Shown here: in pieces, positions 2,471 through 18,347 of the stretch | Layout of the letters: every line of letters starts with the position of its first letter | Numbering within the stretch: position 1 is the stretch's first letter | From: Phycisphaerae bacterium | GTDB lineage: Bacteria > Planctomycetota > Phycisphaerae > SM23-33 | Length of the DNA stretch: 64,000 nucleotides | Assembly: GCA_046541875.1 (NCBI GenBank) | Contig: JBKHCL010000003.1 | Coordinates: 598 to 64,597 of the forward strand | Direction: 5' to 3' | Made by a program: the position numbers and the translations under genes | Notes under the pieces: generated by a model | Told to the model about the DNA's origin: nothing | The model's database searches: none | What the model saw: the letters and a program-made list of their open reading frames with translations, nothing else

Positions 2471-3047
2471 TGAGACGGTGAGAAAAGTAAGGTCTTTATG
2501 TCCGGCCCGAAGATGCAATGTTTGCGGGTCTACACGAGGGAAGCCAAGCGTCTTGGCCGCAGACGTCTGATTCCAACTGGGCCGCTCCGCTCTGCTCTGC
2601 AGTTTCCCTGCCGGTCATCCGCAGCGTTACCCCCAACATTTCCTCTGCGCCTCCCACCGCAAGAGCAGTTCTTCCGCAGCTTCTTCAGGTTGAGGCCCAT
2701 CTTCGCCGGGCGGGGCGTCGCGACAAGCCATCGGGTTCGTCCGTCTTCGGGAGGGGCTTCACTGCGTTTCGTCCCGGCAGGGCGATGTTCCTGGCCGGGC
2801 AAGGCGATCGGGTCATCGTGGCTGCCCGGATCCGCGACGAGACCGAGGCGATGCGGGAAACGAGATAAGAAAAAACGCGATTACGCCAAATCGGGGCGGT
2901 GCCTTCGGGGCGTCGCCCTGTTTGTATATGGGGGATGGAGCGGAGTTCACGGATTCTTCAAAACTCCTTTTCATTGACGCTGAAATCGCTACACTCTGTG
3001 GTCCCGGCGATATCGCTGAAACCCGCAGAGACAGGATCTCAACCGGC

Positions 3048-3815
3048 ATGCAGAACGAACCCGACAATACAGGCCAGCCCAAACCCCAGCCCCGCGGCGA
3101 CGTGCTGATCGAGGCCCGCGACGTTGAACGGGTCTACAAGACCGGCGATACGTCCGTGTACGCCCTGCGGTCGATCGACCTGGAGATCCACCAGGGCGAG
3201 TATCTCTCGCTGATGGGGCCTTCCGGGTCGGGCAAGACGACGTTCTTCAACATGGTCGGCGCCCTGGATTTTCCCACAGCCGGCGAGGTCCGCATCGGCG
3301 GGCGGGACCTGCGGGAGCTCTCCTCGGGGCAGTTGGCGTATCTGCGTTGCGTCAACATCGGTTACATCTTCCAGAACTACAACCTCATCGAGGTTTTCTC
3401 GGCCTTGGAGAACGTCAAGCTGCCGATCAAGATCCGCGGCGCCGACGACGACGAAGCCGAGGAGACGGCCGCTGAGCTGCTCACCCGCGTGGGTCTGGGG
3501 CATCGCCTGGGGCACTTGCCCGGTGAGCTTTCCGGCGGTCAGCAACAGCGGGTGGCCATTGCCCGCGCGTTGGCGAACAATCCGAGCCTGGTATTGGCCG
3601 ACGAGCCGACCGGCAATCTGGACTCCGGCACCGGGCACGAGATTGTGCAACTGCTCAGCGAACTGAGCGATGAACATGGCGTGACGGTCGTATCGGCGAC
3701 GCACGATCACCGCATGCTCGATGTCTCCGACCGCGTGGTGTATCTGCGGGACGGGACGGTGGAGCGGATCGTATCGCGTTCGGATCTCAATATTTCGGTC
3801 GGATCGGTGGGTTAG
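3048..3815 (+). CDS. ABC transporter ATP-binding protein, MacB/LolD/FtsE-type (ATPase 1)
   Basis: Walker A GPSGSGKTT, Q-loop, signature LSGGQQQRVAIARAL, Walker B LVLADEPTGNLD and H-loop ATHD. Paralog of the ATPase at 15516-16286; both have a ~20-aa N-terminal extension. Start taken at the internal ATG (MQNEPD...) by analogy with the paralog; the RBS is weak. Confidence 0.9.
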   Translation: MQNEPDNTGQPKPQPRGDVLIEARDVERVYKTGDTSVYALRSIDLEIHQGEYLSLMGPSGSGKTTFFNMVGALDFPTAGEVRIGGRDLRELSSGQLAYLRCVNIGYIFQNYNLIEVFSALENVKLPIKIRGADDDEAEETAAELLTRVGLGHRLGHLPGELSGGQQQRVAIARALANNPSLVLADEPTGNLDSGTGHEIVQLLSELSDEHGVTVVSATHDHRMLDVSDRVVYLRDGTVERIVSRSDLNISVGSVG

Positions 3816-3888: not shown

Positions 3889-6837
3889 ATGAAGTGGTCT
3901 CATCTGGGCACGATTCTCCTCGGGCTGGTTCTGATTGCGATTCTGGTTCCGTTGTGCCAGTTTCTCACCCAGATGACGGTCAACGTGGACGCCGAGACGT
4001 CCACGCCGGTCGCCTGGGCGGTGGGTATCGTTTTCAGTCTGTTGCTGGTGTTCGGTACGATTCGCGCGATCGCCCGGACCCGCCGGATCGACAAGCCCAA
4101 CATGGTGCTGCTGTACTGCATGCTCACGGTGGCGATCCCGGTGATGAACATCGGGCTGGTCCGCCAGGTGTACATGTCCATGCAGGCGGGCATGCACGAG
4201 TACTTTCTTAACGGGAATAACACCTACCGCACCCAGGTGAACAATCTGCGTCGCGGTTGGTTCCCGGTGGTTCCCACGCGCGAGGGGTTTGCGTGGCTCA
4301 AGGCCGATCGGCTGCTGAACTTCATGGAAGACACCGAAATGGCGTCCCAGCAGCGCAAGGCCGAGTCGAAGCTTCGGGGGCTGGTGGTCAAGGAATCGCA
4401 GGCCCGTCGCCTCCGGCAGGCCGCCACCCAGCCGGCGACCACTCAGCCGACCGCAACCCAGCCCGCGGATGCCAACGCCGCGCCGGTCGACGGGCAGGTC
4501 GACGCCAACGAGCACACCCAGGCGCTGCAGTGGGTGGCCAAGCTCCGGGCCGACCAGGCGGATGCGTTTCTCGTGGAGCGATCGCGCTGGACGTCGGTCG
4601 ATCTGAAATCGCTCGATCTGCTCAAACCGCTCCGCCGGAGGCAGCAGGAAGCCGGCCAGGTCAGCCGTGAAAACCTCCAGAAGCTCCCGGAGATGCTCAA
4701 GGGCATCGATGAACTCGAAGCCAGCCTGCTGGAGGGGAACTGGAACTCGGGTCTGATGGACCAGAGCACCCGCGAACGCCTTTTCGCCCAGTTCCCCGAT
4801 TTGCGAACCCCCGAGGCACGCCGGGAGCGGATTGCCCACTTCGCCGACCAGGCCGACCGGATTGGCCGGATGGTGGCGATGCTTACCACATCCGACCGCA
4901 CGCAGTTGCGGTCGGCGTTGATGGACGACTACCTCCAGCAGTACGCCACCATGCCGGATCATGAAGTGCGAGCCATGCAGAACCGGCTGGTGTATCGCAT
5001 GAAGACCTCTTCCCGTACGGACATGGTGAAGATGGACGGCTCGGGCGGCAAGGTCAACCAGTTCTTGGACGGGTTCCGCAACGGGCTCTGGGCGAAGCTC
5101 CAGGACAAGTCAGCCGTCAAGGAACTGACGGTCCGGGACCGCTTCGAGAAGTCGGCCGACGATCTGCCATGGCACCTCTGGGCCAAGCCGATCGTCATGT
5201 GGACGTCGCTGTTCCTGGCGATTTTCATGCTGCTGATGTGCGTCTCGGAATGGCTCCGCCGCAAGTGGATCGACCGCGAAAACCTCGCCTTCCCCCTGGT
5301 GGAAATCGCCGACACGATGATTCGTCATGACGCGGACATCGAAAACGCAGCCGACCTGTATCACCCCCAGCCTCGGAAGCGTCCGGTCAACCCGGTGTTC
5401 ATGATCGGCTTGCTGATCGGCCTGGTCTGGGTGGGCATGGAGGCGCTGGGTCATTACGGTTTCCTCACGGGCGATTACCAGGCGACGTTCAGCGTTTCCA
5501 AGGAACTGTTCACCGGCAATACGCTGAAGAACGCCGACAAGGTCTTCCTGGTGGTCTCGCCGATCATTCTGGGGCTGGGGTTCCTCATCAGCCTGGAGAT
5601 CAGCTTCTCGGTGTGGGTGATTTTCATCATCTATACGATCATCGTGATGATCGGGAAGAACACCTACCCGGACCTGAAGGACAGCCTCTTCTCCGGCTGG
5701 GCCGGCGGGAGGCAGTACCCGTTCCCGATGGCGCAGATGCTGGGGGCGTCGTTGTGCTTCTCGGCGATCGTCCTGTTCAAGACTTTCCGCGGCTCCAAGC
5801 AGGCCAAGACCACCGCCTCGGACGATTACTTCATCCCGCCTCGGCTGAACTTCATCGGAATGGTCGTGCTGCCGATCGTCATTCTCGCTCTGTTGTGGCA
5901 TCACGGGGTGGGGGAGGGCATCGTGGGCGTGCTGTTCATCGCCCTGATCGGCCTGCTGGCGTTCGTGCAGATGATCACGGCTGCCCGCGTTCGTGCGGAG
6001 ACCGGCCTGCATACCCAGCACGTCTCGTACGAGTTCACGAAGATCCCGATGGTCTTCGGTATGACCAGCCTGTTGGGTTCGCGCATCTTCTCGCTGTTCG
6101 TGACGGTGGCGTTCCTGCCGTTGACGCTGCTGTTCCGCACGATCCCACAGCACCTCGAAAACATGGAGCTGGCCAGGCGAAACAAACTGCGCCTGCGCAC
6201 GGTGGCGGTGGCGTCGCTGACGGCCTTCATCGTGGCGGTGGTCGTCGGCATGGTTGTCCTGCCGATCTGGGCGTACGCCTACGGCGGCGTCGCCTACGGC
6301 GAAGGCGCCGAGGACCAAGGTCAGACCTCGCGCACCATCGCCCACTACTCGCTGTGGATTTCGCACTACCTCGGTGAGGAGGGGCTCGACCAGTGGACGC
6401 AGGTCCACTGGATCCGCATCTGGTTCATGCTGGGCGGCTTCGGCGTGGTGGCGGTGCTGTCGCTGCTGCGAAGCCGATTCCTGCAATTCCCCCTGCATCC
6501 GATCGGATACCTGCTGATCCTGTTGAGTATCTACTACGTATGGGTGTCGCCGTATTACAAAGGAACCTCGGACGCGCCGTCCGAGTCGTCCTGGCTGTGG
6601 GGAAGTATCTTCCTGGCCTGGTTGCTCAAGAAGGTGATCATCAAGTACGGTGGCATGACCACCTACCGACGGGCCAAGCCCTTCTTTATCGGGCTGGTGG
6701 TCGGTGCGGTGCTGTGTGTGTTCCTGTTCAACGCGACGGATCTGGTCTGTTCGCTGATCGGTGCTGACGCCAAGGACCCGGGCGGATTCATCAAACCCTT
6801 CCTGGACAAGCACCCGTTCAGCCCGGCGTTCTATTGA
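3889..6837 (+). CDS. Large polytopic membrane protein, OPT-superfamily-like (982 aa), with a ~300-aa hydrophilic insertion
   Basis: GAAGGTAG RBS before the ATG. At least 14 hydrophobic helices. The N-terminal TM pair and the C-terminal segment (...GSIFLAWLLKKVIIKYGG..YRRAKPFFIGLVVGA) are collinear with the 684-aa paralog at 12766-14817. The N-terminal pattern resembles oligopeptide-transporter (OPT, TC 2.A.67) first helices; that family assignment is from memory, not a search. A Q/R/E-rich loop (aa ~100-440) contains short TQPA repeats. Confidence 0.8.
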   Translation: MKWSHLGTILLGLVLIAILVPLCQFLTQMTVNVDAETSTPVAWAVGIVFSLLLVFGTIRAIARTRRIDKPNMVLLYCMLTVAIPVMNIGLVRQVYMSMQAGMHEYFLNGNNTYRTQVNNLRRGWFPVVPTREGFAWLKADRLLNFMEDTEMASQQRKAESKLRGLVVKESQARRLRQAATQPATTQPTATQPADANAAPVDGQVDANEHTQALQWVAKLRADQADAFLVERSRWTSVDLKSLDLLKPLRRRQQEAGQVSRENLQKLPEMLKGIDELEASLLEGNWNSGLMDQSTRERLFAQFPDLRTPEARRERIAHFADQADRIGRMVAMLTTSDRTQLRSALMDDYLQQYATMPDHEVRAMQNRLVYRMKTSSRTDMVKMDGSGGKVNQFLDGFRNGLWAKLQDKSAVKELTVRDRFEKSADDLPWHLWAKPIVMWTSLFLAIFMLLMCVSEWLRRKWIDRENLAFPLVEIADTMIRHDADIENAADLYHPQPRKRPVNPVFMIGLLIGLVWVGMEALGHYGFLTGDYQATFSVSKELFTGNTLKNADKVFLVVSPIILGLGFLISLEISFSVWVIFIIYTIIVMIGKNTYPDLKDSLFSGWAGGRQYPFPMAQMLGASLCFSAIVLFKTFRGSKQAKTTASDDYFIPPRLNFIGMVVLPIVILALLWHHGVGEGIVGVLFIALIGLLAFVQMITAARVRAETGLHTQHVSYEFTKIPMVFGMTSLLGSRIFSLFVTVAFLPLTLLFRTIPQHLENMELARRNKLRLRTVAVASLTAFIVAVVVGMVVLPIWAYAYGGVAYGEGAEDQGQTSRTIAHYSLWISHYLGEEGLDQWTQVHWIRIWFMLGGFGVVAVLSLLRSRFLQFPLHPIGYLLILLSIYYVWVSPYYKGTSDAPSESSWLWGSIFLAWLLKKVIIKYGGMTTYRRAKPFFIGLVVGAVLCVFLFNATDLVCSLIGADAKDPGGFIKPFLDKHPFSPAFY

Positions 6838-6857
6838 TGCATGAAGGAGTGGTCGAC

Positions 6858-9800
6858 GTGACTCGGCGACTGATAACCTGTTGTTTGGTTCTGCTGGCTG
6901 CGTGGGCCGTTGCGCAGGGCGGCGAGCGGAACGAGAAAATCCAGAAGGACATCGATGTCCCGGTGCGAAAGCAGTTGGAGTCCTACTCGGCCCTCTCGCC
7001 CCAGGGGCTGGAGGCGCTGGACCGCGTCTCCTCCTCCGCTGCGCTGCGCGCGGAGATGGAGGAGATTCTCAAAGGCAACCTGTCCGTCGGTGCCAGGCAG
7101 GTCGATGCCAACGGCAGGGCCCATATCCACCGTTACCTGGACAGGAAGTTCGATGCGCTCTCTGAGCGGGGACTTCGGAAACTGGGCGCGATTACCGGAC
7201 AGGTGGCGGTCCCCGTTTCGATCCGCAACGCCCGCTCGCTCGGCGAGAAAGGCAACGCCCGAGGCCGATCGAGAGTGACCATCGACGGGGTGCGCTGGGC
7301 GGACGGCAACAGCTGTCACCTGCTGCCGATGTGGCCCAACGGCCCGATGCCGTCGATCTGTCCGGTCGGTGGGTTGAGCGGCCCGCTGGTGTACGTCGAA
7401 GACGGTTCGTGGGAAGCCCTGCGAGGCCTGCCCCTCGAGGGCGCCATTGTGCTGATGGACTTCCGTGGCGGACGACGCTGGGCGACACTGGCCTCCATGG
7501 GGGTTCAGGGCGTGATCGCCATCGAGGACGAGCACGTTTCCCGCGACAAGGCCGAGCGGTGGTTCGTGAATACTCCGGTCCCCTTGCCGCGGTTCTACGT
7601 GGACCGCAAACGCGGGCAGGAGCTGATCGCCCACGCCACGCGCAAGGAGTACCCCGAGAAAGGCGATCAGTGGCGCATCGTCAAAGGCAAAGCCGCCACC
7701 ATGCACGGTGGGAACGTCTACGAGCAGCGTCGCTTCGAGTCGCCCTTCGTGTACCTTCCACCCACCGAGCCGATCATTCACACGGTCATGGAGCGCGAGC
7801 TGCTCCGTCGTCTGGGCGACAAGTACGGGGTGGCCGGCGAAGACATCGCGGTGTTGAACAGGCTGGGAGACTCGCCTCCCAAGGCCGGTACCAAGCTGAA
7901 GATTCCCGGAAAGGACGAGACCTACGAAGTCAAGGAGCAGGATCTGCTCAAGCAGATCGCCGCATCTTACGAAGTCTCCCTGGACGCTCTGCTCAAGGCC
8001 AATGACCTCGATAAAGACAAGGAAGACCAGGGCATCTCGGCGGGTACGAAGCTGACGATTCCGAACATCAACCAGTCGCTGGTGATTCTCGTTCGGATTG
8101 ACAGCTGCTCGGTGGTTCCCGACGCCCCGCACGGCGCGAATGCGGCAGGCAACATCGCTTTGGCGATCAAGCTGATGGAGCATCTGGCGACCGACCCGTC
8201 GGTGATCCGGCGCAAGGGCGTGGTGTTCGGGTTCCTGGACGCCGAAGGGCTTGGTGGGCGCACCAGCCGGGCCGTTACCGAGTCGATGCTGCTGAAAGAG
8301 AACAAGCTCAAGCTTCGCCCGAAGGAAGACCCCGCCAACCGCATCAAGCGGTATCGCCAGGTGGTGGCTTGGCTGGAGGCCGACCAGAGCGGCAAGATAG
8401 GCTACGACACCGCGAAGTGGTTGGCCGACGAGTGGTTGTACTCCCGTCTGGAATCGTTGCGAATCCGTCTGGCGGAGGAGCGGACGCGCCTGCGCCGACG
8501 CTTGCGTGAGCTTCCCGAGGACTCCGCCGAAGCCAGGGAAATCGAAACCCGTCTCGACGAGATCAAGCTCCTTGTATGGGGCAAGGACCCGCGCGAAGCC
8601 GATGGCGGGCTGGTGGACCTGCGTGATGAGACCATCAAGAACACCAGCCTCTCCTATCCCGAGCGGACCAAAAGATTTCTACGGACGGTTCCCCAGACCA
8701 TCGCGGAGGCCCGCGATCAGGATATGCCCGAGCTGGCGTTGCCGACGCTCCAGGCGCGACTCAAGGCCGAGCTTGCCGAGGAACAGGAAAGCTACGATAT
8801 CTCGCAGGGCAACCTGGATGTGATCGGCAAGATCCTCGATGCGATGGTTCCCAGCAAGGATCAGCCTTCCCTCGCCTACCAACTGGACCTTGCCGACGCG
8901 ACCCATTCGCTGGGGATCGTGTCCGAGAACAAGGACTTCCGCCGCAATCACCCGGCTGCGGGGAACGCCAAGGCCTTGGCCAAGCGATACCGCAAGGTGC
9001 TGGCGTACGCAGCCGTCCAGGCGGGTTGGCCGGAAGACTTCCTTATTCTGACCAACGACGACGTGCTGCATCACGCCCTGATGAAACTCCAGTCACCGCC
9101 GATTTATCCGGAGTTCTGGGCGGGCGTGGACGTGTCGCTGTTGGCGTTGAGCACGCAGAACGATACCAAGCAGAAGCTGGACTCACCACGGGACACCCTC
9201 GATCGGGTCAAGTGGGAGAACCTGCATATCCAGGCTCGCAGCGCGATGTTACTGCTTCGGCTGGGGCTGGAAAGCCCGCTGGACTCCCTGCCTCCGGCGA
9301 AGATCAACAAGAAACCGAAATTCGGTCGTCTGACCGGCAAGATCGCCGAGTTCAACATGCGATCGGGCATTGACGCCCAGGACCCGATCGCCGGGGCCTA
9401 CGTGTACTACCCGGCCTTGAAGAAGGATCATGGCACTCACGCGCATAACACGCTCGCCTACCGCGGAGCTCGCCGCGGGATTCTGATGATCACGCCGCTG
9501 AACGGCATCTATACGCTGCCGCTGGAGGACGCCTCCTACGACGATGCCCTGTTGCTGTACTCGTATTTGCTGGACAGTGAAACAGGCCTGTTCAACAAGG
9601 TCGCCGACCAGGGGCAGATCGGCAGCCAGAGGGCAAACCCGAAGTTCAAGCTGCTGGACCTGGAGGAGACTGAAAAGAAGATCGTGCTCACCGAGGTCTA
9701 CCCGTGGATGTTCTTTCCGGGCGTGGACCCGCGGGAGTACAAGGTCGTCGGCGAGACCGAGAGTCAGTTCCACCTCGTTGACGTGGTCCGCAACGGCGAT

Positions 9801-12764
9801 CCGAAGCATTACGCCCTGGATGCTCCCCGAGGGGACTACAAGGAGCATGACCTCGACGCGGTCGTGGTCTACATGCCCAACGGTAGCCGGGCTCGGGTGG
9901 CCGTCCAGTCGGCGGTCACGACCAAGATGGTGCTCAGCGGCTGGGTGCATCCCGAGAGGTTCCGCCATCGCGGAAACGGGTACGTCATCGGCGACCTTGG
10001 CTCGAAGGAGTCCAAGGCGACGCTGATGGAATCGAAGCGTACCCAGGCCCGCGTGGAGGCCGACGTCACCGGGGAGAGCTTTGACGAGGCCGCCTGGGAG
10101 AAGGAATTCGAGGCGTGGTACCAGGCACAGATGGCCAAGCCCGGCTGGGCGCGAAATCTTACGCTGTCCCAGACGCCGCTGCACATTGCCGGGGACATGC
10201 TGATCCTGGCTGAGCGTCGTCAGCGGGTCTACAAGGAATTCGGTATCAAGGACCAGGGCGTTGCCCACGCCATCGAACGAGCCCGGGAGAAGTACGCCCG
10301 CGCCAAGGACGCCCTGAACCGCAAGGACTACCAGAGTGCCAACGGAGCCGCCCGCGAGGCGTGGGGCATCCTGATGAAGTCCTACGGACAGGTATTGGAC
10401 CTGGGTCGCGAGGCGGTCTTCTCGGTGGTGGTCCTGATGGCCCTGTTGCTGCCGGCGAGCATGTTCCTGGAGAAGCTCACTATCGGGCGGAAGGGCATTG
10501 TGGGAAAGCTGGCGGGTACGACCGTTTACTTCGTGCTGGGCACGACGTTCCTGAACTTCTTTCACCCGGGATTCAAGATCTCGGTTTCGCCGTTCATCAT
10601 CATGATCGCCTTCACGATGATCCTGATGTCGCTGATCGTGCTGATTATCTCGTATCAGCGGTTCGACGTCCTGCTTCGCCGGGCCCGCGCCGCCGGTGGC
10701 GAGGTGGAGAGCGAAGAGATCAGCCTGACCAGTTCGCTGGCGACGGCCTTGTCGATGGGCGTATCGAATCTCAAGAAACGACCGGCCCGAACGTTCCTGA
10801 CCGTTTTCACCGTAACGGTGCTGACCTTCTCGATCGTGACGTTCGTGTCGGTGCGCGGCGACGACCAGGTGGAGCTGTTGCCGCTCTCGCTGGACGAGGA
10901 TCTCTCGGGCCGCACCGTAAAGCCGATCCCGCCGAAATACCGCGGCGTGATGTTCCGCGAGTTTTTCTGGTTGACGATGGAGGACAACTTCGTGGACGCG
11001 GTGGAGACCGAGTTCGGCGCCCGCTATGACCTTGCCGTTCGCGCCCATCGCATCCAGGTGGAAGGCGGCAACAACGCCGACCGCGAAGGGATGAACCAGG
11101 AGAAGCTCACCCGGATCACGGGCACCCCGAAGAATCGCCCCACGTGGGTGGCCACCGGCATCATGGCGTTTCAGCCCGCCGAGCGGAAATTCAGTCATCT
11201 CCAACAGGCCGTCAGCAACGAGTCCTGGTTCCGCTCGGCCGACCCCATTACCGGACGGGTCGAGGACCGCGACGTAATCATCATCCCCGACAACGGGGCC
11301 GAGGCGTTGGGCATCACCGAGGAGAAGATCTTCCGTGAGGATCCCAACGGGCAGATGGTGCGTCGGGCTCACGATGAACTGCCGAAGGTGCGCCTGATGA
11401 ACCGCCAGTGGCGCGTGATCGGGATCCTCGATACGGACCTGGCCAACCGCCTGCGGGACGTCAACGGCAAGAGCCTGGCGATGGTGGACTACCTTCGCAG
11501 CGCGTTCGCCTCGGGCGCCGCCGGTGGTGGTCACCTGGCCAACGAGCCCGAATCCTACCACATGTCATGGGAAGAGCTCGTCATCGTCCCGTATGCCGCC
11601 AAGAACGACGTGAAGGCCGAGACCCGCTCGGTGGCGATCCGCCTGCGCGAGCCACAAGAGGTCACCGTCGAGCCGGGCGAGTCGCTGGCGGACCTGGCCA
11701 AGCGGTATCTGGGCAGCAAGCTACGGGCCAGGGAGATCCTCCAGGCGAACGAATCGCTCGACGACGCCGCCGACATCCAAGCCGGCATGACGGTGCAGAT
11801 TCCCGGCGACGACATGGAGACATTCCGAAACGACGTGGCCTTGCGTGTGAACAAGGCGATGTTCGGGCAGGTCGGCGGGCAGATCTCGCTGATCACGACG
11901 CAGTCCCAGCAGAGCGTAGCGGGTCTGGCGAAGGTGATCGTTCCGGTCATCCTCTGCGTTCTGATCGTTCTGAACACGATGATGGCCAATGTCGAAGAAC
12001 GTCGCGGCGAGGTGGGCATGCTCGGGGCGATCGGCCTGAGCCCGGCCCAGATCTCGTTCCTGCTTCTCAGCGAGTCGACGGTCTTCAGTGTGCTGGGGAT
12101 CGTGCTGGGCACGTTCATCGGACTGTTGTTCGCGAACGTCGCCTCGATGATCGGCATCCTGCCGGGATTGTCGTTCAACTTCACCTCGCTGCTGTCGATG
12201 GCTTTGGCGGCGGGAACGGGCATCGTGGTGTTGATCGCGACGTTGATTCCCGCCCGCAAGGCGGCGGCACTGGCGGCCCCGAGCGGCATGGCCCAGTGGG
12301 AGCTGCCCGAGCCGTCGGCCGACGGAGACATCTCCTTCGAGCTGCCCTTTACGCTCACGCGGGGCAACGCGGTGGGCATGTCCGCCTTTTTCCGTCGCTT
12401 CCTGCTGAACCACACGGACCCGGCGAGTCCGGACTTCAACTGCCGGGATATCGAGTTGTCGGTTATTGACGAACCCGACGAACAGGCCCTGCGGGTGGAT
12501 GCGGTGATGTGGCTGAGCCCGTACGATCTGGACGTGGCCCAGAAGTTCGCGCTGAAGGTGGTTCCCACCGAGAGCGAGGGCGTCTTCACGGTGGTGATTC
12601 TGCTGCACCGCACCTCCGGTACGGAGGACGCCTGGCTGCGGACCAACTACGGGTTCCTGGACCTGGTGCGCCGGCAATTCCTGCTGTGGCGCAACCTCGA
12701 CAACGATTCACGCAGCGACTACATTGCGGAAGGCGCACAGCTCTTCCAGGAGGCCGCTCAGTAA
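6858..12764 (+). CDS. Giant secreted/membrane fusion protein (~1970 aa): signal peptide, PA domain, M28/transferrin-receptor-like peptidase-like domain, LysM domains, 3-TM linker and a C-terminal FtsX/MacB-type permease module
   Basis: The track ORF starts at TTG 6834, overlapping the upstream stop. A GTG at 6858 lies 9 nt after AAGGAG and gives MTRRLITCCLVLLAAWAVAQG, a clean signal peptide. The ATG at 6837 is an alternative start. PA-like segment LEGAIVLMDFRGGRRWATLASMGVQGVIAI. M28-like segment HGANAAGNIALAIKLMEHLATDP...RKGVVFGFLDAEGLGG. LysM-like segments at aa ~320-400 (e.g. YEVKEQDLLKQIAASYEVSLDALLKANDL...GTKLTIP) and aa ~1600 (VTVEPGESLADLAKRYLG...AGMTVQIPG). FtsX TM1-like KRPARTFLTVFTVTVLTFSIVTFVSV. 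FtsX C-terminal domain VLNTMMANVEERRGEVGMLGAIGLSPAQISFLLLSESTVFSVLGIVLG followed by two more TMs. Confidence 0.85.
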   Translation: MTRRLITCCLVLLAAWAVAQGGERNEKIQKDIDVPVRKQLESYSALSPQGLEALDRVSSSAALRAEMEEILKGNLSVGARQVDANGRAHIHRYLDRKFDALSERGLRKLGAITGQVAVPVSIRNARSLGEKGNARGRSRVTIDGVRWADGNSCHLLPMWPNGPMPSICPVGGLSGPLVYVEDGSWEALRGLPLEGAIVLMDFRGGRRWATLASMGVQGVIAIEDEHVSRDKAERWFVNTPVPLPRFYVDRKRGQELIAHATRKEYPEKGDQWRIVKGKAATMHGGNVYEQRRFESPFVYLPPTEPIIHTVMERELLRRLGDKYGVAGEDIAVLNRLGDSPPKAGTKLKIPGKDETYEVKEQDLLKQIAASYEVSLDALLKANDLDKDKEDQGISAGTKLTIPNINQSLVILVRIDSCSVVPDAPHGANAAGNIALAIKLMEHLATDPSVIRRKGVVFGFLDAEGLGGRTSRAVTESMLLKENKLKLRPKEDPANRIKRYRQVVAWLEADQSGKIGYDTAKWLADEWLYSRLESLRIRLAEERTRLRRRLRELPEDSAEAREIETRLDEIKLLVWGKDPREADGGLVDLRDETIKNTSLSYPERTKRFLRTVPQTIAEARDQDMPELALPTLQARLKAELAEEQESYDISQGNLDVIGKILDAMVPSKDQPSLAYQLDLADATHSLGIVSENKDFRRNHPAAGNAKALAKRYRKVLAYAAVQAGWPEDFLILTNDDVLHHALMKLQSPPIYPEFWAGVDVSLLALSTQNDTKQKLDSPRDTLDRVKWENLHIQARSAMLLLRLGLESPLDSLPPAKINKKPKFGRLTGKIAEFNMRSGIDAQDPIAGAYVYYPALKKDHGTHAHNTLAYRGARRGILMITPLNGIYTLPLEDASYDDALLLYSYLLDSETGLFNKVADQGQIGSQRANPKFKLLDLEETEKKIVLTEVYPWMFFPGVDPREYKVVGETESQFHLVDVVRNGDPKHYALDAPRGDYKEHDLDAVVVYMPNGSRARVAVQSAVTTKMVLSGWVHPERFRHRGNGYVIGDLGSKESKATLMESKRTQARVEADVTGESFDEAAWEKEFEAWYQAQMAKPGWARNLTLSQTPLHIAGDMLILAERRQRVYKEFGIKDQGVAHAIERAREKYARAKDALNRKDYQSANGAAREAWGILMKSYGQVLDLGREAVFSVVVLMALLLPASMFLEKLTIGRKGIVGKLAGTTVYFVLGTTFLNFFHPGFKISVSPFIIMIAFTMILMSLIVLIISYQRFDVLLRRARAAGGEVESEEISLTSSLATALSMGVSNLKKRPARTFLTVFTVTVLTFSIVTFVSVRGDDQVELLPLSLDEDLSGRTVKPIPPKYRGVMFREFFWLTMEDNFVDAVETEFGARYDLAVRAHRIQVEGGNNADREGMNQEKLTRITGTPKNRPTWVATGIMAFQPAERKFSHLQQAVSNESWFRSADPITGRVEDRDVIIIPDNGAEALGITEEKIFREDPNGQMVRRAHDELPKVRLMNRQWRVIGILDTDLANRLRDVNGKSLAMVDYLRSAFASGAAGGGHLANEPESYHMSWEELVIVPYAAKNDVKAETRSVAIRLREPQEVTVEPGESLADLAKRYLGSKLRAREILQANESLDDAADIQAGMTVQIPGDDMETFRNDVALRVNKAMFGQVGGQISLITTQSQQSVAGLAKVIVPVILCVLIVLNTMMANVEERRGEVGMLGAIGLSPAQISFLLLSESTVFSVLGIVLGTFIGLLFANVASMIGILPGLSFNFTSLLSMALAAGTGIVVLIATLIPARKAAALAAPSGMAQWELPEPSADGDISFELPFTLTRGNAVGMSAFFRRFLLNHTDPASPDFNCRDIELSVIDEPDEQALRVDAVMWLSPYDLDVAQKFALKVVPTESEGVFTVVILLHRTSGTEDAWLRTNYGFLDLVRRQFLLWRNLDNDSRSDYIAEGAQLFQEAAQ

Positions 12765-12765
12765 C

Positions 12766-14817
12766 ATGGCTGAGAATTCGGGTAAGAAGAAGGCGTCGGG
12801 CGAGAAGTTCTACGACGCCAAGTTCTCCATCGAGGCGATCCAGCACCACCCCTATGAGAACGGGTTCACCTGGCGGACCGTTCTCGGTGCGCTGTTCGTG
12901 GCGTTCGTGATGCTCCCGGGCGTGATTTTCATGGGGCTGATGATCGGTCAGAGCCTCGGGACTGCCGCCGAGTGGGTGACGATCATCCTCTTCGTGGAGT
13001 TGGCCCGCCGCTCGTTCGTGACGCTGCGGAAGCAGGAGCTGTACATGCTCCGCTACACCGTCGGGTCGCTGTCGCACTTCTCGGGCGGGGTCGCTCTGGG
13101 CGGTGGGATGTTTGCCTACCTGGTGTTCAACCGCTATCTGCGAAACAGCGAGGAATTCCACAACTTCGGCATCGCCCAGGATGTGCCCGACTGGTTCGCT
13201 CCATACGGGGACGCCGCCTATACGAGCTTCCTCAACTCGGTCTGGTGGCCGGTGATCGCCGTGATGGTCGGGGGCATGATCCTCTCGAAGCTCACCTCGC
13301 TTTCCCTGGGATACCTCGGATACAAGCTGACCTCCGACGTCGAGAAGCTTCCCTTCCCGCTGGCCCCGGTTCACGCCGAGGGGGCCATCGCCCTGGCTGA
13401 GCGCTCGCAGGATGAAAACTCCCGTGGCTTCCGGCAGTACTGCTTCTCGATCGGCGTGATCCTCGGTGCGGTGTTCGGCATTCTGTACACGGCGATCCCG
13501 ATTCTCTCCCAGGCGGTGCTCTCCCGGCCGATCCATCTGCTGCAGATCCCGTTCTGGGACTTCACCGAGATGTGTGAGAACTTCCTGCCGGCGGCGACGA
13601 TCACGCTGGGTTCGAACCTGATGCTCCTGTTTCTTGGGTTCGTGCTGCCCTGGCGGATCGTCGTGGGCGGGTTCGTCACCGGCGTGCTGTTCCAGGTGAT
13701 TCTCAACCCGTTCGTATTCCATCCGCTGGGGATGCTTCCTCACTGGGAGCCCGGCAAGGACGCCATCAAGACGCACGTGTCCAACCAGATCGACCTGTAC
13801 CTCTCGATCGGTATGGGGACGGCCTTCGCGGTGGCGGTGCTGGGTATCTACGGAATGATCCGCAGCGTGCTGAAATACAGCAGATCCACCGCCGAGGAAG
13901 AACGATCGGTCGACCTGCGGAACTTCTGGAAACGCGACGTGGAACGTGGCGACCCGCCGACCGGGGCGGCGTTGCTGGTGTGGATCTTCTCGGCGGCGGG
14001 GTTCGTGATACTGTCCTACTATCTGGTGAACTTCCGTCGGGGCGCGATCCTTCCGCCCGAGGAAAGGTTCCCATGGTACTGGCTGGCGCTGTTCGCGTTC
14101 ATCTGGACGCCGATCAACACGTACATCAACGCGCGGATGAGCGGTATTGCAGGCCAACACGCGGGCATCCCGTATATCAAAGAGGCCTTCATCTTCCTCT
14201 CGGGGTATCGGCAGGTGAACATCTGGTTCGCTCCGCTGCCGATCCATAACTACGGTAACATGTCCGACAAGCTGCGGGTCTGTCAGTTAACGCGAACAAA
14301 GTTCTCTTCCATCCTGCGGGCGGAGCTGTTCATCTTCCCGTTGATGTTGTTTGCGTCGTTCATCTTCTGGAACTACATCACCAGCCTGGGCCCGATTCCC
14401 TCGGATCGCTATCCGTTCGTGCAGAAGTTCTGGCCGCAGTTCGCGCAGATGAAGGCGCTGTGGGCGGCCGGCATGCAGGAAGGTCAGTCGCTGCTGATGC
14501 AATCGCTCAAACCCAGTGTGATCTTCACCAGTCTGGGCACGACGCTGCTTCTGTTCATCGGGTTCGGGTGGCTGGGGGTCTCCGCCCAGTATATCTACGG
14601 TGGAATCGGCGGGCTGAACCGCTACCCCCACGAGCCGTTGACGATGTTCCTGGGCGGCCTGCTGGGGCGGTACGTGCTGGCCAAGCGGTTCGGACAGGAG
14701 CGCTGGCAGAACTACGCCCCGATTCTGGTGGTGGGCTTCGGTGCGGGGATGGGCCTCTCGTCAATGATTGCCATCGCCATCAACTTCCTCTGGACTTCGA
14801 TTGGAAGCGGTTTCTGA
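12766..14817 (+). CDS. Polytopic membrane protein, OPT-superfamily-like (684 aa); paralog of the 3889-6837 protein
   Basis: ATG at 12766 two nt after the giant gene's TAA, with AGGAGG upstream. About 14-16 TM helices. N-terminal FTWRTVLGALFVAFVMLPGVIFMGLMIGQSLG...EWVTIILFVELARR resembles OPT-family first helices. C-terminal ...LGGLLGRYVLAKRFGQERWQNYAPILVVGFGAG parallels the C-terminus of the 982-aa protein. Confidence 0.8.
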   Translation: MAENSGKKKASGEKFYDAKFSIEAIQHHPYENGFTWRTVLGALFVAFVMLPGVIFMGLMIGQSLGTAAEWVTIILFVELARRSFVTLRKQELYMLRYTVGSLSHFSGGVALGGGMFAYLVFNRYLRNSEEFHNFGIAQDVPDWFAPYGDAAYTSFLNSVWWPVIAVMVGGMILSKLTSLSLGYLGYKLTSDVEKLPFPLAPVHAEGAIALAERSQDENSRGFRQYCFSIGVILGAVFGILYTAIPILSQAVLSRPIHLLQIPFWDFTEMCENFLPAATITLGSNLMLLFLGFVLPWRIVVGGFVTGVLFQVILNPFVFHPLGMLPHWEPGKDAIKTHVSNQIDLYLSIGMGTAFAVAVLGIYGMIRSVLKYSRSTAEEERSVDLRNFWKRDVERGDPPTGAALLVWIFSAAGFVILSYYLVNFRRGAILPPEERFPWYWLALFAFIWTPINTYINARMSGIAGQHAGIPYIKEAFIFLSGYRQVNIWFAPLPIHNYGNMSDKLRVCQLTRTKFSSILRAELFIFPLMLFASFIFWNYITSLGPIPSDRYPFVQKFWPQFAQMKALWAAGMQEGQSLLMQSLKPSVIFTSLGTTLLLFIGFGWLGVSAQYIYGGIGGLNRYPHEPLTMFLGGLLGRYVLAKRFGQERWQNYAPILVVGFGAGMGLSSMIAIAINFLWTSIGSGF

Positions 14818-14818
14818 C

Positions 14819-15478
14819 ATGGTCACGCGAGAATGGGAAATCGGACAGCTTCACCTTCGCTGGGACCTGGTCTGGTCGATGGCGATGAGCAGCCTGAAGG
14901 TCCGCATGATGCGGTCCTTCCTGACCTGCCTGACCATCACGACGGCCACCGCGTTCATGGCGTATCTGCTCGCCAGCCCGCGGAAAACCGGCGACGTCAC
15001 CGAGATGCAGAGTTGGTTGCTGATGCTCGTTCTGGCGCTGATCGTATCCGGCGCGGGCGTGCTCAACGCGATGCTCATGTCCGTCGCCCAGCGATACCGC
15101 GAGATCGGGACCATCAAGTGTCTCGGCGCGCTGGACACGCTGGTCCTGTGGATGGTGCTGGTCGAATCGGCCATCCTCGGGTTGGCCGGTGCGGTGGTGG
15201 GGCTTTTGGTGGGCCTGCTGTTCTCGCTGCTGCTGGGCATGGCCGATTTCGGGCTGGGATATTTCGCGACGTTCTTCGTGGGCACCATGCCCCCCGAGCA
15301 ACTGCCCGGGTGGCTGGCGTCGACGTTCCCCGACGGGATGAACCGCATGATCTGGCTGCTGGGCACGATGGTCTTCGTGTTCGTGGTGGGCATGGGGCTG
15401 ACCACCCTCGGGGCGGCGATCCCGGCGTATATCGCTTCCAAGATGCCGCCCGTCGAGGCGATGCGGGGCGAGAAGTAG
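14819..15478 (+). CDS. Minimal FtsX-like ABC permease (219 aa, 4 TM, no large extracytoplasmic domain)
   Basis: Start overlaps the upstream stop (TGAcATG). TM1 preceded by KVRMMRSFLTCLTITTATAFMAYLL, a pattern typical of FtsX/MacB TM1. C-terminal MSVAQRYREIGTIKCLGALDTLVLWMVLVESAILGLAGAVVGLLVG matches the FtsX signature region. The TM1-TM2 loop is only ~15 aa. Confidence 0.75.
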   Translation: MVTREWEIGQLHLRWDLVWSMAMSSLKVRMMRSFLTCLTITTATAFMAYLLASPRKTGDVTEMQSWLLMLVLALIVSGAGVLNAMLMSVAQRYREIGTIKCLGALDTLVLWMVLVESAILGLAGAVVGLLVGLLFSLLLGMADFGLGYFATFFVGTMPPEQLPGWLASTFPDGMNRMIWLLGTMVFVFVVGMGLTTLGAAIPAYIASKMPPVEAMRGEK

Positions 15479-15515
15479 CCAACGCACAACGCCCCGCGCG
15501 GGCGGAGAGAATCCT

Positions 15516-16286
15516 ATGACGCAGCAGAAAATCAACTGGTTCACCGACCTCGAAGAATCGGTCGACTATACCGTGATGACCAAGAACGTCACGAAGATCT
15601 ACGAGATGGGCGACACCAGGATCCAGGCGCTGGACAACGTGACGGTCTCCATCCAGACCGGCGAGTACATCTCCATCATGGGTCCGTCGGGCTCGGGCAA
15701 GACCACGCTGTTCAACGCCATCGGCGGACTGATGAAGCCCACCTCCGGCAGCGTCTTCATCGACGAGATCGACGTCGCCCAACTGGACGCCAACGAACTG
15801 GCCTGGCTGCGCTGCCGAAAGATCGGCTACATCTTCCAGAGCTACAATATCGTCAAGGTCATGACCGCCCTGGAGAACGTCGTGCTGCCGATGCTCTTCG
15901 CCGGCGTTCCGGGCGACGAGGCCCAGGATCGCGGCGTGGACATCCTCTCGCGCGTCGGGCTGGGAGACCGCATCCTGCACACCCCCAAGGAACTGTCCGG
16001 CGGCCAGCAGCAACGCGTCGCCATCGCCCGGGCGTTCGCGAACAACCCGGCGATCATCCTGGCCGACGAACCCACCGCGAACCTCGACCTCAAGACCGGG
16101 GCCGAGATCATCCAACTGATGAAGGACATGAACCGCGAGCGCGGCGTGACGGTGATCTGCTCCACCCACGACCACGCCATGCTGGACATCTCCGACCGGA
16201 TCATCTGGATGGAGGACGGGCAGGTCAAACGCATCGCCGACCGCGACGATGTGGACATCAAGGTCGACGTGTTCGAAGAGCAGTAA
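15516..16286 (+). CDS. ABC transporter ATP-binding protein, MacB/LolD/FtsE-type (ATPase 2)
   Basis: GGAGAG RBS before the ATG. Walker A GPSGSGKTT, signature LSGGQQQRVAIARAF, Walker B ILADEPTANLD and H-loop STHDH are all present. Clear paralog of the 3048-3815 ATPase. Confidence 0.9.
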   Translation: MTQQKINWFTDLEESVDYTVMTKNVTKIYEMGDTRIQALDNVTVSIQTGEYISIMGPSGSGKTTLFNAIGGLMKPTSGSVFIDEIDVAQLDANELAWLRCRKIGYIFQSYNIVKVMTALENVVLPMLFAGVPGDEAQDRGVDILSRVGLGDRILHTPKELSGGQQQRVAIARAFANNPAIILADEPTANLDLKTGAEIIQLMKDMNRERGVTVICSTHDHAMLDISDRIIWMEDGQVKRIADRDDVDIKVDVFEEQ

Positions 16287-16393
16287 TCCCCGCCGCCCCG
16301 GCGGCGTACAATGTTCGACGGCCCGATGACCCTGCCGCTTTCGTGGCGCAGGCTCGTGGCTGCACACCTCAACCGATCGCAAGGAGACGCACC

Positions 16394-18310: not shown

Positions 18311-18347
18311 TCCGAATCGGCTGCCTGTGCAGCCAGGAGGCAATACC

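Follow-up and report, generated by a model that had tools for sequence, protein, structure and literature searches.

Type VII ABC systems, among them MacB, LolCDE, FtsEX and BceAB, contain FtsX-domain permeases that relay ATP-driven movement to a periplasmic domain. FtsEX acts with EnvC- or PcsB-type partners; this ABC machine governs hydrolysis of the cell wall by way of a peptidase-like partner that is catalytically dead. We know of no described type VII member with OPT-fold partner proteins, and to our knowledge bacterial proteins of the OPT superfamily are almost unstudied. OPT/YSL proteins, with plant and fungal members that carry peptides or metal chelates, couple the uptake of oligopeptides or chelates to protons, and their fold of transport core plus scaffold is built from inverted repeats. 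Barley Yellow Stripe 1 (HvYS1; PDB 7WSR/7WST) is an OPT/YSL transporter whose core holds acidic proton-binding residues (Asp446/490/494). HvYS1 is a proton-coupled, elevator-type dimer with a core and a scaffold (PMC9691689).

The window analyzed here, a 64,000-nucleotide stretch of a Phycisphaerae bacterium contig, contains an operon in which two divergent relatives of these transporters are encoded among the genes of an FtsX-type ABC system. This conserved pairing of two OPT-superfamily relatives inside an FtsX-type operon appears to be undescribed. Literature searches found no type VII ABC system with OPT-fold partners, and no relevant paper came up for DUF6785/DUF6784 or for OPT combined with FtsX, LysM, M28 or Phycisphaerae.

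A heteromeric type VII ABC operon

The operon encodes, in order and all on the forward strand, an ATPase, a DUF6785 protein, a giant LysM/FtsX protein, an OPT-like protein, a small FtsX protein and a further ATPase. Its 5′ boundary is marked by a terminator-like hairpin that closes the upstream unit (2892..2920, +; a 13-bp stem with 9 G-C pairs, then TTTGTATATG), and at the gene junctions TGATG, TAAcATG and TGAcATG the start and stop codons overlap or lie one base apart. ATPase 1 (3048..3815, +; Pfam ABC_tran, 1.9e-31) and ATPase 2 (15516..16286, +; ABC_tran, 2.2e-34) are both of the LolD/MacB/FtsE type. The mechanically called frame of ATPase 1 opens at 2922; the likely start is the ATG at 3048, and homologue alignments begin at residues 43–62. 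The two ATPases are about 52% identical (cross-hits 48–55%), and their best NCBIfam matches are LolD, DevA, MacB, FtsE and DarD (1e-59 to 1e-70), all under the equivalog cut-offs. By profile score, both are predicted members of the LolD/MacB/FtsE clade and belong to none of the named systems.

The giant FtsX-domain protein of about 1970 aa (6837..12764, +; Pfam LysM 2.4e-20, FtsX 2.3e-14) is composed of a signal-peptide-like N-terminus, a degenerate PA/M28-like region, two LysM domains and a type VII ABC permease domain. It aligns with a Peptidase_M28+MacB_PCD+FtsX protein from the distant locus L085 (BLASTP, 8e-46). Pfam detected no MacB_PCD in the window's giant protein, but did so in the L085 homologue (2.8e-11), which aligns with the giant protein through that region. 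In a tentative alignment to an M28 reference sequence, all giant homologues included seem to have lost the catalytic Glu-Glu motif, and the window's own protein the metal ligands as well; an active M28 aminopeptidase was considered and set aside on the strength of this tentative alignment. The small FtsX permease subunit (14819..15478, +; 219 aa; Pfam FtsX 4.5e-14) has no large ectodomain and is kept in related loci. It is the real gene at this position, and the mechanically listed open reading frame at 14833–15519 is a spurious frame.

The operon encodes a type VII ABC system that is heteromeric and belongs to the mechanotransmission kind. Its FtsX domains match LolF, MacB, YtrF and LolC by sequence in the PDB, its ATPases resemble LolD, MacB and FtsE, its two unlike permease subunits recall LolC/LolE, and a homologue of the giant subunit carries the MacB periplasmic core domain. 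It differs from the described members in having one permease of about 1970 aa with LysM and M28-like modules and another nearly devoid of an ectodomain, as well as two distinct ATPases. Like FtsEX with EnvC or PcsB, it unites an FtsX-type machine, a peptidoglycan-binding module and a peptidase-like domain seemingly without catalytic residues. Here, however, that domain resembles M28 instead of LytM/M23 or CHAP and is fused into the FtsX protein; the operon has no identified hydrolase partner, and two transporter-fold proteins are added.

Two divergent members of the OPT/YSL superfamily

The open reading frame at 3889..6837 (+), from which the initial annotation started, is a genuine gene with a 982-aa product; a 983-aa homologue (P0001) is 93% identical. 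The product matches DUF6785 (PF20581; 3.2e-48, 164.9 bits, gathering score 25), with an insert dividing the match in two, and DUF6784 (PF20580; 3.3e-19, 69.4 bits, gathering score 26.4) C-terminal to DUF6785. The second membrane protein (12766..14817, +) is likewise genuine, with a length corrected from 684 to 683 aa by the ATG at 12766; its 99% identical homologue P0113 is also 683 aa long. A Pfam scan of the 683-aa protein gave no match to any family. Pfam OPT (PF03169, gathering score 25.8 bits), proposed at first as the check on an OPT assignment, was matched by neither protein at E <= 1, and NCBIfam scans of both gave no OPT match either; weak Na_Ala_symp/agcS matches in the Pfam and NCBIfam scans were far under threshold and were disregarded. 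Going by these profile matches, the proper family label of the 982-aa protein is DUF6785/DUF6784, not Pfam OPT. Neither the two proteins nor their family profiles retrieved anything relevant from the PDB in sequence and profile searches.

Structure prediction gave a clearer picture. The AlphaFold2 models of the 982-aa protein (pLDDT 87.5, pTM 0.88) and the 683-aa protein (pLDDT 76.7) each had HvYS1 as their sole Foldseek match in the PDB at the threshold of E <= 0.001 (E 7.9e-5, TM 0.60 on the target, and E 3.3e-8, TM 0.56/0.63, respectively). Sequence also connects the 683-aa family with Pfam OPT: among its 67 profile-defined relatives, 29 exceed the Pfam OPT threshold, the best with 64.2 bits. 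This exclusive structural match, the grading of the 683-aa family into OPT and the alignment of diverse profiles described below support the term OPT-like at the level of fold and superfamily, where the OPT assignment first made holds, although it fails at the level of the Pfam family. DUF6785/DUF6784 is thereby identified as a divergent branch of the OPT/YSL superfamily with a two-domain elevator-type fold, in which a transport core moves against a fixed scaffold, and the 683-aa protein as a second member of the superfamily, anciently separated from the 982-aa protein.

The length of the membrane part and the helix order of both proteins agree with HvYS1, and a KL-x-[YF]-P motif lies at about residue 195 in HvYS1 and the 683-aa protein. 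The OPT motif KL-x-Y-P-S-G-T-A-T-A after TM3 corresponds to KLVYPSGTATAILINGFHT in HvYS1 (195–217), EKLPFPLAPVHAEGAIALAE in the 683-aa protein (194–213) and ENLAFPLVEIADTMIRH in the 982-aa protein (464–480), with the L-x-F-P core alone retained in the window proteins. There are also differences from described OPT/YSL proteins. Both window proteins fall under the Pfam OPT threshold and are 12–14% identical to HvYS1; known members are lone proton symporters, whereas these two are encoded as a pair in an FtsX/ABC operon; and the 982-aa protein has a 300-residue domain in its predicted TM2–TM3 loop. It matches both DUF6785 and DUF6784 above threshold, but typical members of that family, of about 650–700 aa, are without the insert.

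In the 982-aa protein, the N-terminal membrane segment (residues 1–128; 3889..4272, +), supported by hhalign, has AlphaFold2 helices at residues 3–30, 38–62, 69–87 and 90–107, which by their order may represent TM1, H1 and a broken TM2 of the transport core. The main membrane domain (residues 430–982; 5176..6837, +), assigned from TM3 onward by hhalign and invariant columns, contains ENLAFPL, RAETG with its invariant R700, and the DUF6784 part at its C-terminal end. Short DUF6785 members align along its entire membrane part, and 21 columns of this alignment are invariant.

The two proteins had at first been described as paralogs. Pairwise alignment, suggested as a check, finds nothing between them (BLASTP, best E = 1). 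A shallow alignment of the 683-aa family (members 58–75% identical) reached only 31% in hhalign, and significance against the 982-aa family was attained only once distant representatives had joined the 683-aa family profile. The N-terminal helices singled out initially (TILLGLVLIAI / TVLGALFVAFV) then align, residues 3–128 of the 982-aa protein with 34–148 of the 683-aa protein (hhalign 94.7%, E 5.9e-8). So do the C-terminal segments (WLLKKVIIKYGG..RAKPFFIGLVVG / LLGRYVLAKRFGQERWQNYAPILVVGFG), residues 430–946 with 160–669, over 450 columns (98.2%, E 3.5e-14). R700 (RAETG) aligns with R458 (NARMSG), and the membrane domains of both families show strongly conserved polar and charged residues and many invariant Pro and Gly. 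At face value, the missing OPT match and the missing pairwise alignment thus spoke against the initial annotation, and the deeper fold and profile tests restored it in part. Judged by profile comparison, the two proteins are ancient homologues over both membrane parts. They are not recent paralogs: the two lineages exist apart in Anaerolineales and Omnitrophota as well, which points to an ancient divergence.

The insert of the 982-residue protein

The hydrophilic insertion of about 300 aa is genuine, with boundaries revised from aa ~100–440 to residues ~129–429 (4273..5175, +). The 683-aa protein has a linker of 11 residues in its place, and the DUF6785 proteins of about 650–700 aa have a gap. 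Described at first as E/R/Q-rich, the insert shows an excess of R, Q, D and E (10.8, 7.9, 7.9 and 6.0%, vs. 4.2, 2.6, 3.0 and 2.9% outside it). The AlphaFold2 model contains about 18 helices of 4–32 residues, mostly with pLDDT >90 and with only ~25 residues of low confidence. Of the coiled-coil and disordered states between which a decision had been sought, the model supports neither, and predicts a folded helical domain without a long coiled coil. An insert-only HMM searched against all collected proteins and six-frame open reading frames matched long-form DUF6785 proteins only. The insert is present in all of the ~100 long-form proteins, and its residues 160–420 are mostly weakly conserved among these homologues (13–47% column identity). 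Together, alignments and model show a clade-specific domain with a predicted all-helical fold.

The TQPA micro-repeat within the insert (4421..4463, +), encoding ATQPATTQPTATQPA, was correctly noticed, with a unit of 15 nt (5 aa: TQPAT/TQPTA/TQPAD) in place of the 12 nt first given and a shorter span than ~4425–4480. It comprises 2.9 copies with 71% matches, at a TRF score of 51 against a threshold of 50. The TQPA loop (residues 181–200) is both the lowest-confidence loop of the 982-aa protein (pLDDT 56–58) and its least conserved (column identity 0.13 among long-form homologues), and predicted disorder within the insert looks limited to it.

The flanks of the insert follow a positive-inside pattern, with RTRRIDK before TM2 and WLRRKW after TM3. 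KLVYPSGTATA lies within chain residues 195–217 of HvYS1, EKLPFPL at 194–200 of the 683-aa protein and ENLAFPL at 464–470 of the 982-aa protein, and this matching position indicates that the helix before the motif is TM3 and the insert the TM2–TM3 loop. In HvYS1, the TM4–H4 loop is disulfide-bonded to the C-terminal strand (PMC9691689). If that loop is taken as outside, TM3 would run out-to-in, which would leave the TM2–TM3 loop outside. From the flanking charges and this mapping onto HvYS1, we infer that the insert lies in the TM2–TM3 loop of the transport core, probably on the periplasmic face. An assignment to the “arm” helix H3, which links the core with the scaffold, was dropped, since the position of the KLxYP motif in HvYS1 points to the TM2–TM3 loop.

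Conservation of the locus and candidate mechanisms

Examination of long-form loci with enough flank on both sides shows all six genes in the same order in 18/18 cases, and truncated loci carry whichever operon genes fit. The long-form DUF6785 subfamily (~950–1080 aa) occurs only in Phycisphaerae/Planctomycetota, Verrucomicrobiota and Victivallales, and always in the six-gene operon. A trio of insert-less DUF6785, giant M28/FtsX and OPT-like genes is found in Anaerolineales, Omnitrophota and two unassigned metagenome contigs; the Anaerolineales clusters have neither the insert nor ATPase 1 (ABC1), and the distant loci L085, L061 and L091 have no adjacent ATPase gene. The insert, the LysM domains and the second ATPase appeared together, their co-occurrence being a single phylogenetic event. 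The initial remark that coupling to an ABC/FtsX module is unusual holds up: the coupling is conserved across phyla, and no paper on it was found. Most short DUF6785 genes stand alone; of 47 short-form loci inspected, 39 showed no nearby counterpart of any partner gene from the window. Some lone short genes (as at L041) lie beside a standard MacAB-like cluster, which looks coincidental.

We lean, with slightly better than even confidence, toward a composite envelope machine in which the insert would couple the OPT-fold subunit to the FtsX ectodomain. The two OPT-fold proteins may pair by their scaffolds as a pseudo-symmetric heterodimer, comparable to the HvYS1 homodimer, and this would join the FtsX heterodimer. 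The giant subunit would hold the cell wall or another GlcNAc polymer by its LysM domains, and the insert would transmit ATP-driven motion of that subunit's periplasmic part to the DUF6785 subunit's mobile core. The moved core could then gate or drive the passage of a substrate, a peptide or muropeptide-like compound derived from the wall, through the inner membrane. Several observations weigh against this: gene order indicates functional linkage, not contact; insert-less DUF6785 proteins in the same cluster type in Anaerolineales and Omnitrophota imply that the insert is not needed for association; the missing adjacent ATPase at L085, L061 and L091 weakens the case for ATP driving of the OPT-fold subunits; most of the insert (residues 160–420) is poorly conserved; and insert, LysM domains and extra ATPase count as one event. 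A more specific proposal, which we regard as rather doubtful, is a hybrid of primary and secondary transporter, with a heteromeric FtsX-type ABC mechanotransducer, anchored to peptidoglycan by LysM, physically joined to an OPT-fold elevator heterodimer, the periplasmic insert acting as a lever by which ATP hydrolysis would gate or power what is otherwise a secondary-transporter fold, and an ancient insert-less core reaching from Chloroflexota to the PVC group.

The coupling might also be functional only, with the giant FtsX/ATPase machine acting on an extracytoplasmic polymer, the OPT-fold pair importing the products by proton drive, and the insert serving as a periplasmic lid or substrate-capture domain. 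This is possible though not probable: OPT/YSL proteins work as proton-coupled symporters independently of any ATPase (PMC9691689), in keeping with the distant trios without an adjacent ATPase and the solitary position of most short DUF6785 genes, and the Peptidase_M28-like domain of giant homologues points to peptides. Yet M28 catalytic residues look lost in the tentative alignment, overlapping junctions and strict cross-phylum gene order suggest a stoichiometric assembly, and the insert arose along with the LysM domains and second ATPase. That the OPT-fold proteins transport nothing and, as membrane scaffolds or anchors, position or regulate the giant wall-binding FtsX protein as FtsEX-type accessory subunits do, is unlikely. 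The conserved polar and charged membrane residues, including R700 and its counterpart R458, the invariant Pro and Gly and the complete core-plus-scaffold fold predicted for both argue for transport, even though neither protein matches Pfam OPT, the motif KLxYPSGTATA has shrunk to NLAFPL / KLPFPL, and the giant partner already resembles a pseudo-enzyme. A cytoplasmic insert that docks the ABC1 encoded just upstream would make the DUF6785 subunit a directly ATP-energized OPT-fold transporter. Insert and ABC1 do arise jointly in the PVC clade and are both absent from Anaerolineales clusters, but the charge bias on both flanks and the HvYS1 mapping put the loop outside, and ATPases about 52% identical are expected of an ordinary heterodimer serving two FtsX subunits, making such docking very improbable. 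Hardly credible is the literal first picture, in which the two genes are recent paralogs within a standard OPT peptide transporter family and one copy acquired a disordered or coiled-coil low-complexity insertion driven by repeats. The R/Q/D/E-rich insert with its short TQPA repeat invites it, but BLASTP leaves the two proteins at E = 1, both lineages are distinct in distant phyla, the insert is confidently modeled as multi-helical with low confidence in only ~25 residues, and the repeat amounts to 2.9 copies inside a hypervariable loop.

These results tie DUF6785/DUF6784, a family without assigned fold or function, to the OPT/YSL elevator fold, and identify two OPT-fold proteins whose partnership with a giant FtsX-type ABC system is conserved over at least four or five phyla. 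The envelope biology of Planctomycetota and Verrucomicrobiota is poorly understood, and the insert is a concrete candidate for a coupling element. A physical partnership would be the first example known to us of a type VII ABC mechanotransducer acting on a secondary-transporter fold, and would offer a handle on cell-wall-linked transport in these phyla.

Fold and family of the two membrane proteins

The 982-aa protein is encoded by a plus-strand ORF (3889–6837) that is genuine. It has a 93%-identical homologue of 983 aa and about 100 more of 900–1090 aa, found in metagenome-assembled genomes that carry the labels Phycisphaerae, Planctomycetota, Opitutales and Verrucomicrobia. In Pfam it matches DUF6785 (3.2e-48) and DUF6784 (3.3e-19) and has no match to OPT; by sequence it is a member of DUF6785/DUF6784, its proper family name. 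The OPT-like protein (12766–14817), previously taken as 684 aa long, is a real gene of 683 aa, its start being placed at ATG 12766 because the upstream stop and this ATG are spaced one base (TAAcATG). Residues of this protein are counted here from 12763, and so run one higher. It has no match in Pfam, and BLASTP between the two proteins gives E = 1.

AlphaFold2 models were built from family alignments of both proteins and are confident (982-aa protein, pLDDT 87.5, pTM 0.88; 683-aa protein, pLDDT 76.7, pTM 0.78). The only significant Foldseek match of either model in the PDB was barley Yellow Stripe 1 (HvYS1), a solved OPT/YSL transporter (982-aa model, E 7.9e-5, TM 0.60 on target; 683-aa model, E 3.3e-8, TM 0.56/0.63), all others having E of at least 0.015. 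A profile of the 683-aa family retrieved 950 relatives from 1.84 billion representatives, and among 67 full-length relatives covering 23–63% identity, 29 passed the Pfam OPT threshold (best 1.3e-17). With a diverse 683-aa profile, hhalign aligned residues 430–946 of the 982-aa protein with 160–669 of the 683-aa protein (98.2%, E 3.5e-14, 450 columns), and the N-terminal parts, 3–128 and 34–148, at 94.7% (E 5.9e-8). Common motifs are WFPVVP/WFAPY, ENLAFPL/EKLPFPL and RAETG/RMSG, the last with an invariant Arg.

The initial annotation had called the two proteins OPT-like paralogs, quoting N-terminal helices and C-terminal segments that do fall inside the two hhalign alignments. At face value the missing OPT match and BLASTP alignment contradict this; the fold, the link of the 683-aa family to Pfam OPT and the hhalign homology reverse that verdict, with "paralogs" holding only in the sense of an ancient divergence. 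Because of these three lines of evidence, the proteins are, from profiles and models, old, separate members of one superfamily with an OPT-like fold. The closest known families are OPT/YSL, whose fold both proteins share without matching its profile, and DUF6785/DUF6784, to which the 982-aa protein belongs.

Extent and placement of the insert

Between the two hhalign blocks, residues ~129–429 of the 982-aa protein stand opposite an 11-residue linker of the 683-aa protein, and the same residues are a clean gap in DUF6785 proteins of ~650–700 aa from Armatimonadota and other phyla. This insert is hydrophilic, as originally described, with R, Q, D and E more frequent than elsewhere in the protein. 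It is modeled as neither disordered nor a long coiled coil, with ~18 helices of 4–32 residues each and pLDDT mostly >90, dropping to 56–58 only in the TQPA loop (residues 181–205). Across 27 long-form (insert-bearing) homologues, the proximal part (residues 110–150) is conserved as TYRT..WFPVVPT.EGFAW.KADRLL, residues 160–420 keep length and helices at a column identity of only 13–47%, and the TQPA loop has the lowest conservation of the region (0.13). An insert HMM matched all long-form proteins and loci examined (E 1e-29 to 1e-94); among the proteins examined, it matched no short form, giant protein or 683-aa family member.

The TQPA repeat is present at 4421–4463, with a unit of 15 nt (five codons) rather than the 12 nt first reported; its 2.9 copies with 71% matches score 51 in Tandem Repeats Finder, barely above the threshold of 50. 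The 64 kb window holds only three such arrays, two of them within the 982-aa gene. Another marginal 15-nt micro-repeat in this gene (6270–6309) encodes AYAYGGVAYGEGA, in a predicted periplasmic loop. Some relatives of the 683-aa family, 800–1080 aa long (P0234, P0235, P0240, P0241, P0243, P0252), match the family profile in two stretches with a break past position ~570, as if this sister family had independently gained a large insertion elsewhere in the protein.

HvYS1 consists of a scaffold and a transport core (TM1-H1, TM2, TM3, H3 and TM8-H6, TM9, TM10, H7), and an elevator mechanism has been proposed in which the core shifts ~15 Å against the scaffold (PMC9691689). Phe240 and Tyr244 are assigned to TM4, and the TM4–H4 loop is disulfide-linked to the C-terminal strand (PMC9691689). 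The motif used for placement reads KLVYPSGTATAILINGFHT in HvYS1 (chain residues 195–217), EKLPFPLAPVHAEGAIALAE in the 683-aa protein (194–213) and ENLAFPLVEIADTMIRH in the 982-aa protein (464–480). With Phe240/Tyr244 on TM4, the long helix preceding the motif would be TM3 and the helix following it the arm helix H3, which places the insert in the TM2–TM3 loop of the core. We take the TM4–H4 loop to be extracellular from its disulfide; TM4 would therefore run in-to-out and TM3 out-to-in, leaving the TM2–TM3 loop outside. The charge bias agrees, with RTRRIDK ahead of TM2 and WLRRKW directly past TM3. Helix order, this one motif and charge, read by analogy with HvYS1, thus point to an insert on the outer face of the core.

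A co-inherited OPT-fold/FtsX operon

One tightly coupled, co-inherited operon on the plus strand encodes the pair of OPT-fold proteins together with two FtsX subunits that differ from each other and two likewise different ATPases. A strong terminator-like hairpin (2892–2920; 13-bp stem and T-rich tail) ends the upstream unit immediately 5′ of the listed TTG start of ABC ATPase 1 (2922); the true start is probably ATG 3048 (gene 3048–3815), which removes an apparent 60-residue N-terminal extension. The DUF6785 gene is followed by that of a giant protein of ~1970 aa (6837 or 6858 to 12764). This protein combines a signal-peptide-like N-terminus (MTRRLITCCLVLLAAWAVAQG) with a pair of LysM domains and, at its C-terminus, an FtsX domain matching LolF, MacB, YtrF and LolC. 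The OPT-like gene, a 219-aa FtsX-domain protein (14819–15478) and ABC ATPase 2 (15516–16286) complete the operon. A 228-aa ATG ORF overlapping the small FtsX gene (14833–15519) was rejected as wrong-frame, being Arg/Gly/Pro/Ala-rich with no family match. Stops and starts overlap or lie one base apart at 6835–6839 (TGATG), 12762–12768 (TAAcATG) and 14815–14821 (TGAcATG), a sequence arrangement that suggests translational coupling. The ATPases, ~52% identical to each other, belong to the LolD/MacB/FtsE clade, below every equivalog cut-off. For the neighbours of the 982-aa protein, the closest known systems are type VII ABC systems (LolCDE, MacB, FtsEX). Directly 3′ of the operon lie two plus-strand ORFs (16343–18310 and 18243–20243; 655 and 666 aa) without Pfam match.

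All six genes occur in one order in 18 of 18 long-form loci with enough flank on both sides, and truncated contigs carry them as far as they reach. These loci are labelled Phycisphaerae, Planctomycetaceae, Opitutales, Verrucomicrobiota and Victivallales. In locus L031, ATPase 2 is absent from the next 1.9 kb; in L026 (Verrucomicrobiota), the genes for small FtsX and ATPase 2 (1202–2583) are on the other strand and precede the cluster rather than ending it, reflecting either rearrangement or misassembly. Insert-less Anaerolineales loci (L038–L040) encode a DUF6785 protein of ≤760 aa, a giant FtsX protein (1966 aa) that lacks LysM, an OPT-like protein, small FtsX and one ATPase. Omnitrophota L061 (9587–17952) has an insert-less DUF6785 protein (655 aa), Peptidase_M28+FtsX (1458 aa) and an OPT-like protein, and metagenome contigs L085 (1467–9896) and L091 (3–8274) hold the trio of insert-less DUF6785, giant M28/FtsX and an OPT-like member that passes Pfam OPT in both. 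No ABC ATPase gene adjoins the trio in L061, L085 or L091; either its gene lies at another site or the FtsX proteins function without one. The remaining short DUF6785 genes are mostly solitary. The core trio is ancient; the PVC clade added to it the insert, the LysM domains and a second ATPase.

The giant protein of the window has Peptidase_M28+MacB_PCD+FtsX homologues in other phyla; BLASTP matches the L085 giant, which also carries a MacB periplasmic core domain, over residues 1106–1967 (8e-46), with further matches in the PA/M28 region. Set against an M28 reference sequence, and as leads only, the M28 metal-ligand motifs appear lost from the window giant (AHFDS to VRIDS, GAQDSLG to GANAAGN), and the catalytic Glu-Glu seems absent in all giant homologues aligned.

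A possible link between transport and the ABC module

We hold the identity, fold and operon with high confidence; the coupling mechanism set out here, the likeliest of those considered, is held with low confidence. The components may form pseudo-symmetric heterodimers, by analogy with the HvYS1 homodimer formed via the scaffold. The giant subunit would bind peptidoglycan or another GlcNAc polymer, and the predicted periplasmic insert, carried by the moving core of the DUF6785 subunit, would touch the giant ectodomain. Through this contact, mechanotransmission powered by ATP could gate or drive the elevator motion and the passage of a wall-derived peptide-like substrate.

The same operon could instead encode independent proton-driven importers whose tie to the ABC system is functional only, or OPT-fold proteins that serve as scaffolds without transport. 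An insert in the cytoplasm docking ATPase 1 would also join the two modules, against the helix order and charge bias that favour the outer face. Literature searches of incomplete coverage returned no paper on DUF6785/DUF6784 and none combining OPT with FtsX, LysM or M28.

The 982-aa protein represents an OPT-superfamily subfamily with a large domain insertion, predicted to be periplasmic. This subfamily is housed in a cross-phylum OPT-fold/FtsX gene partnership that is new relative to the literature searched.
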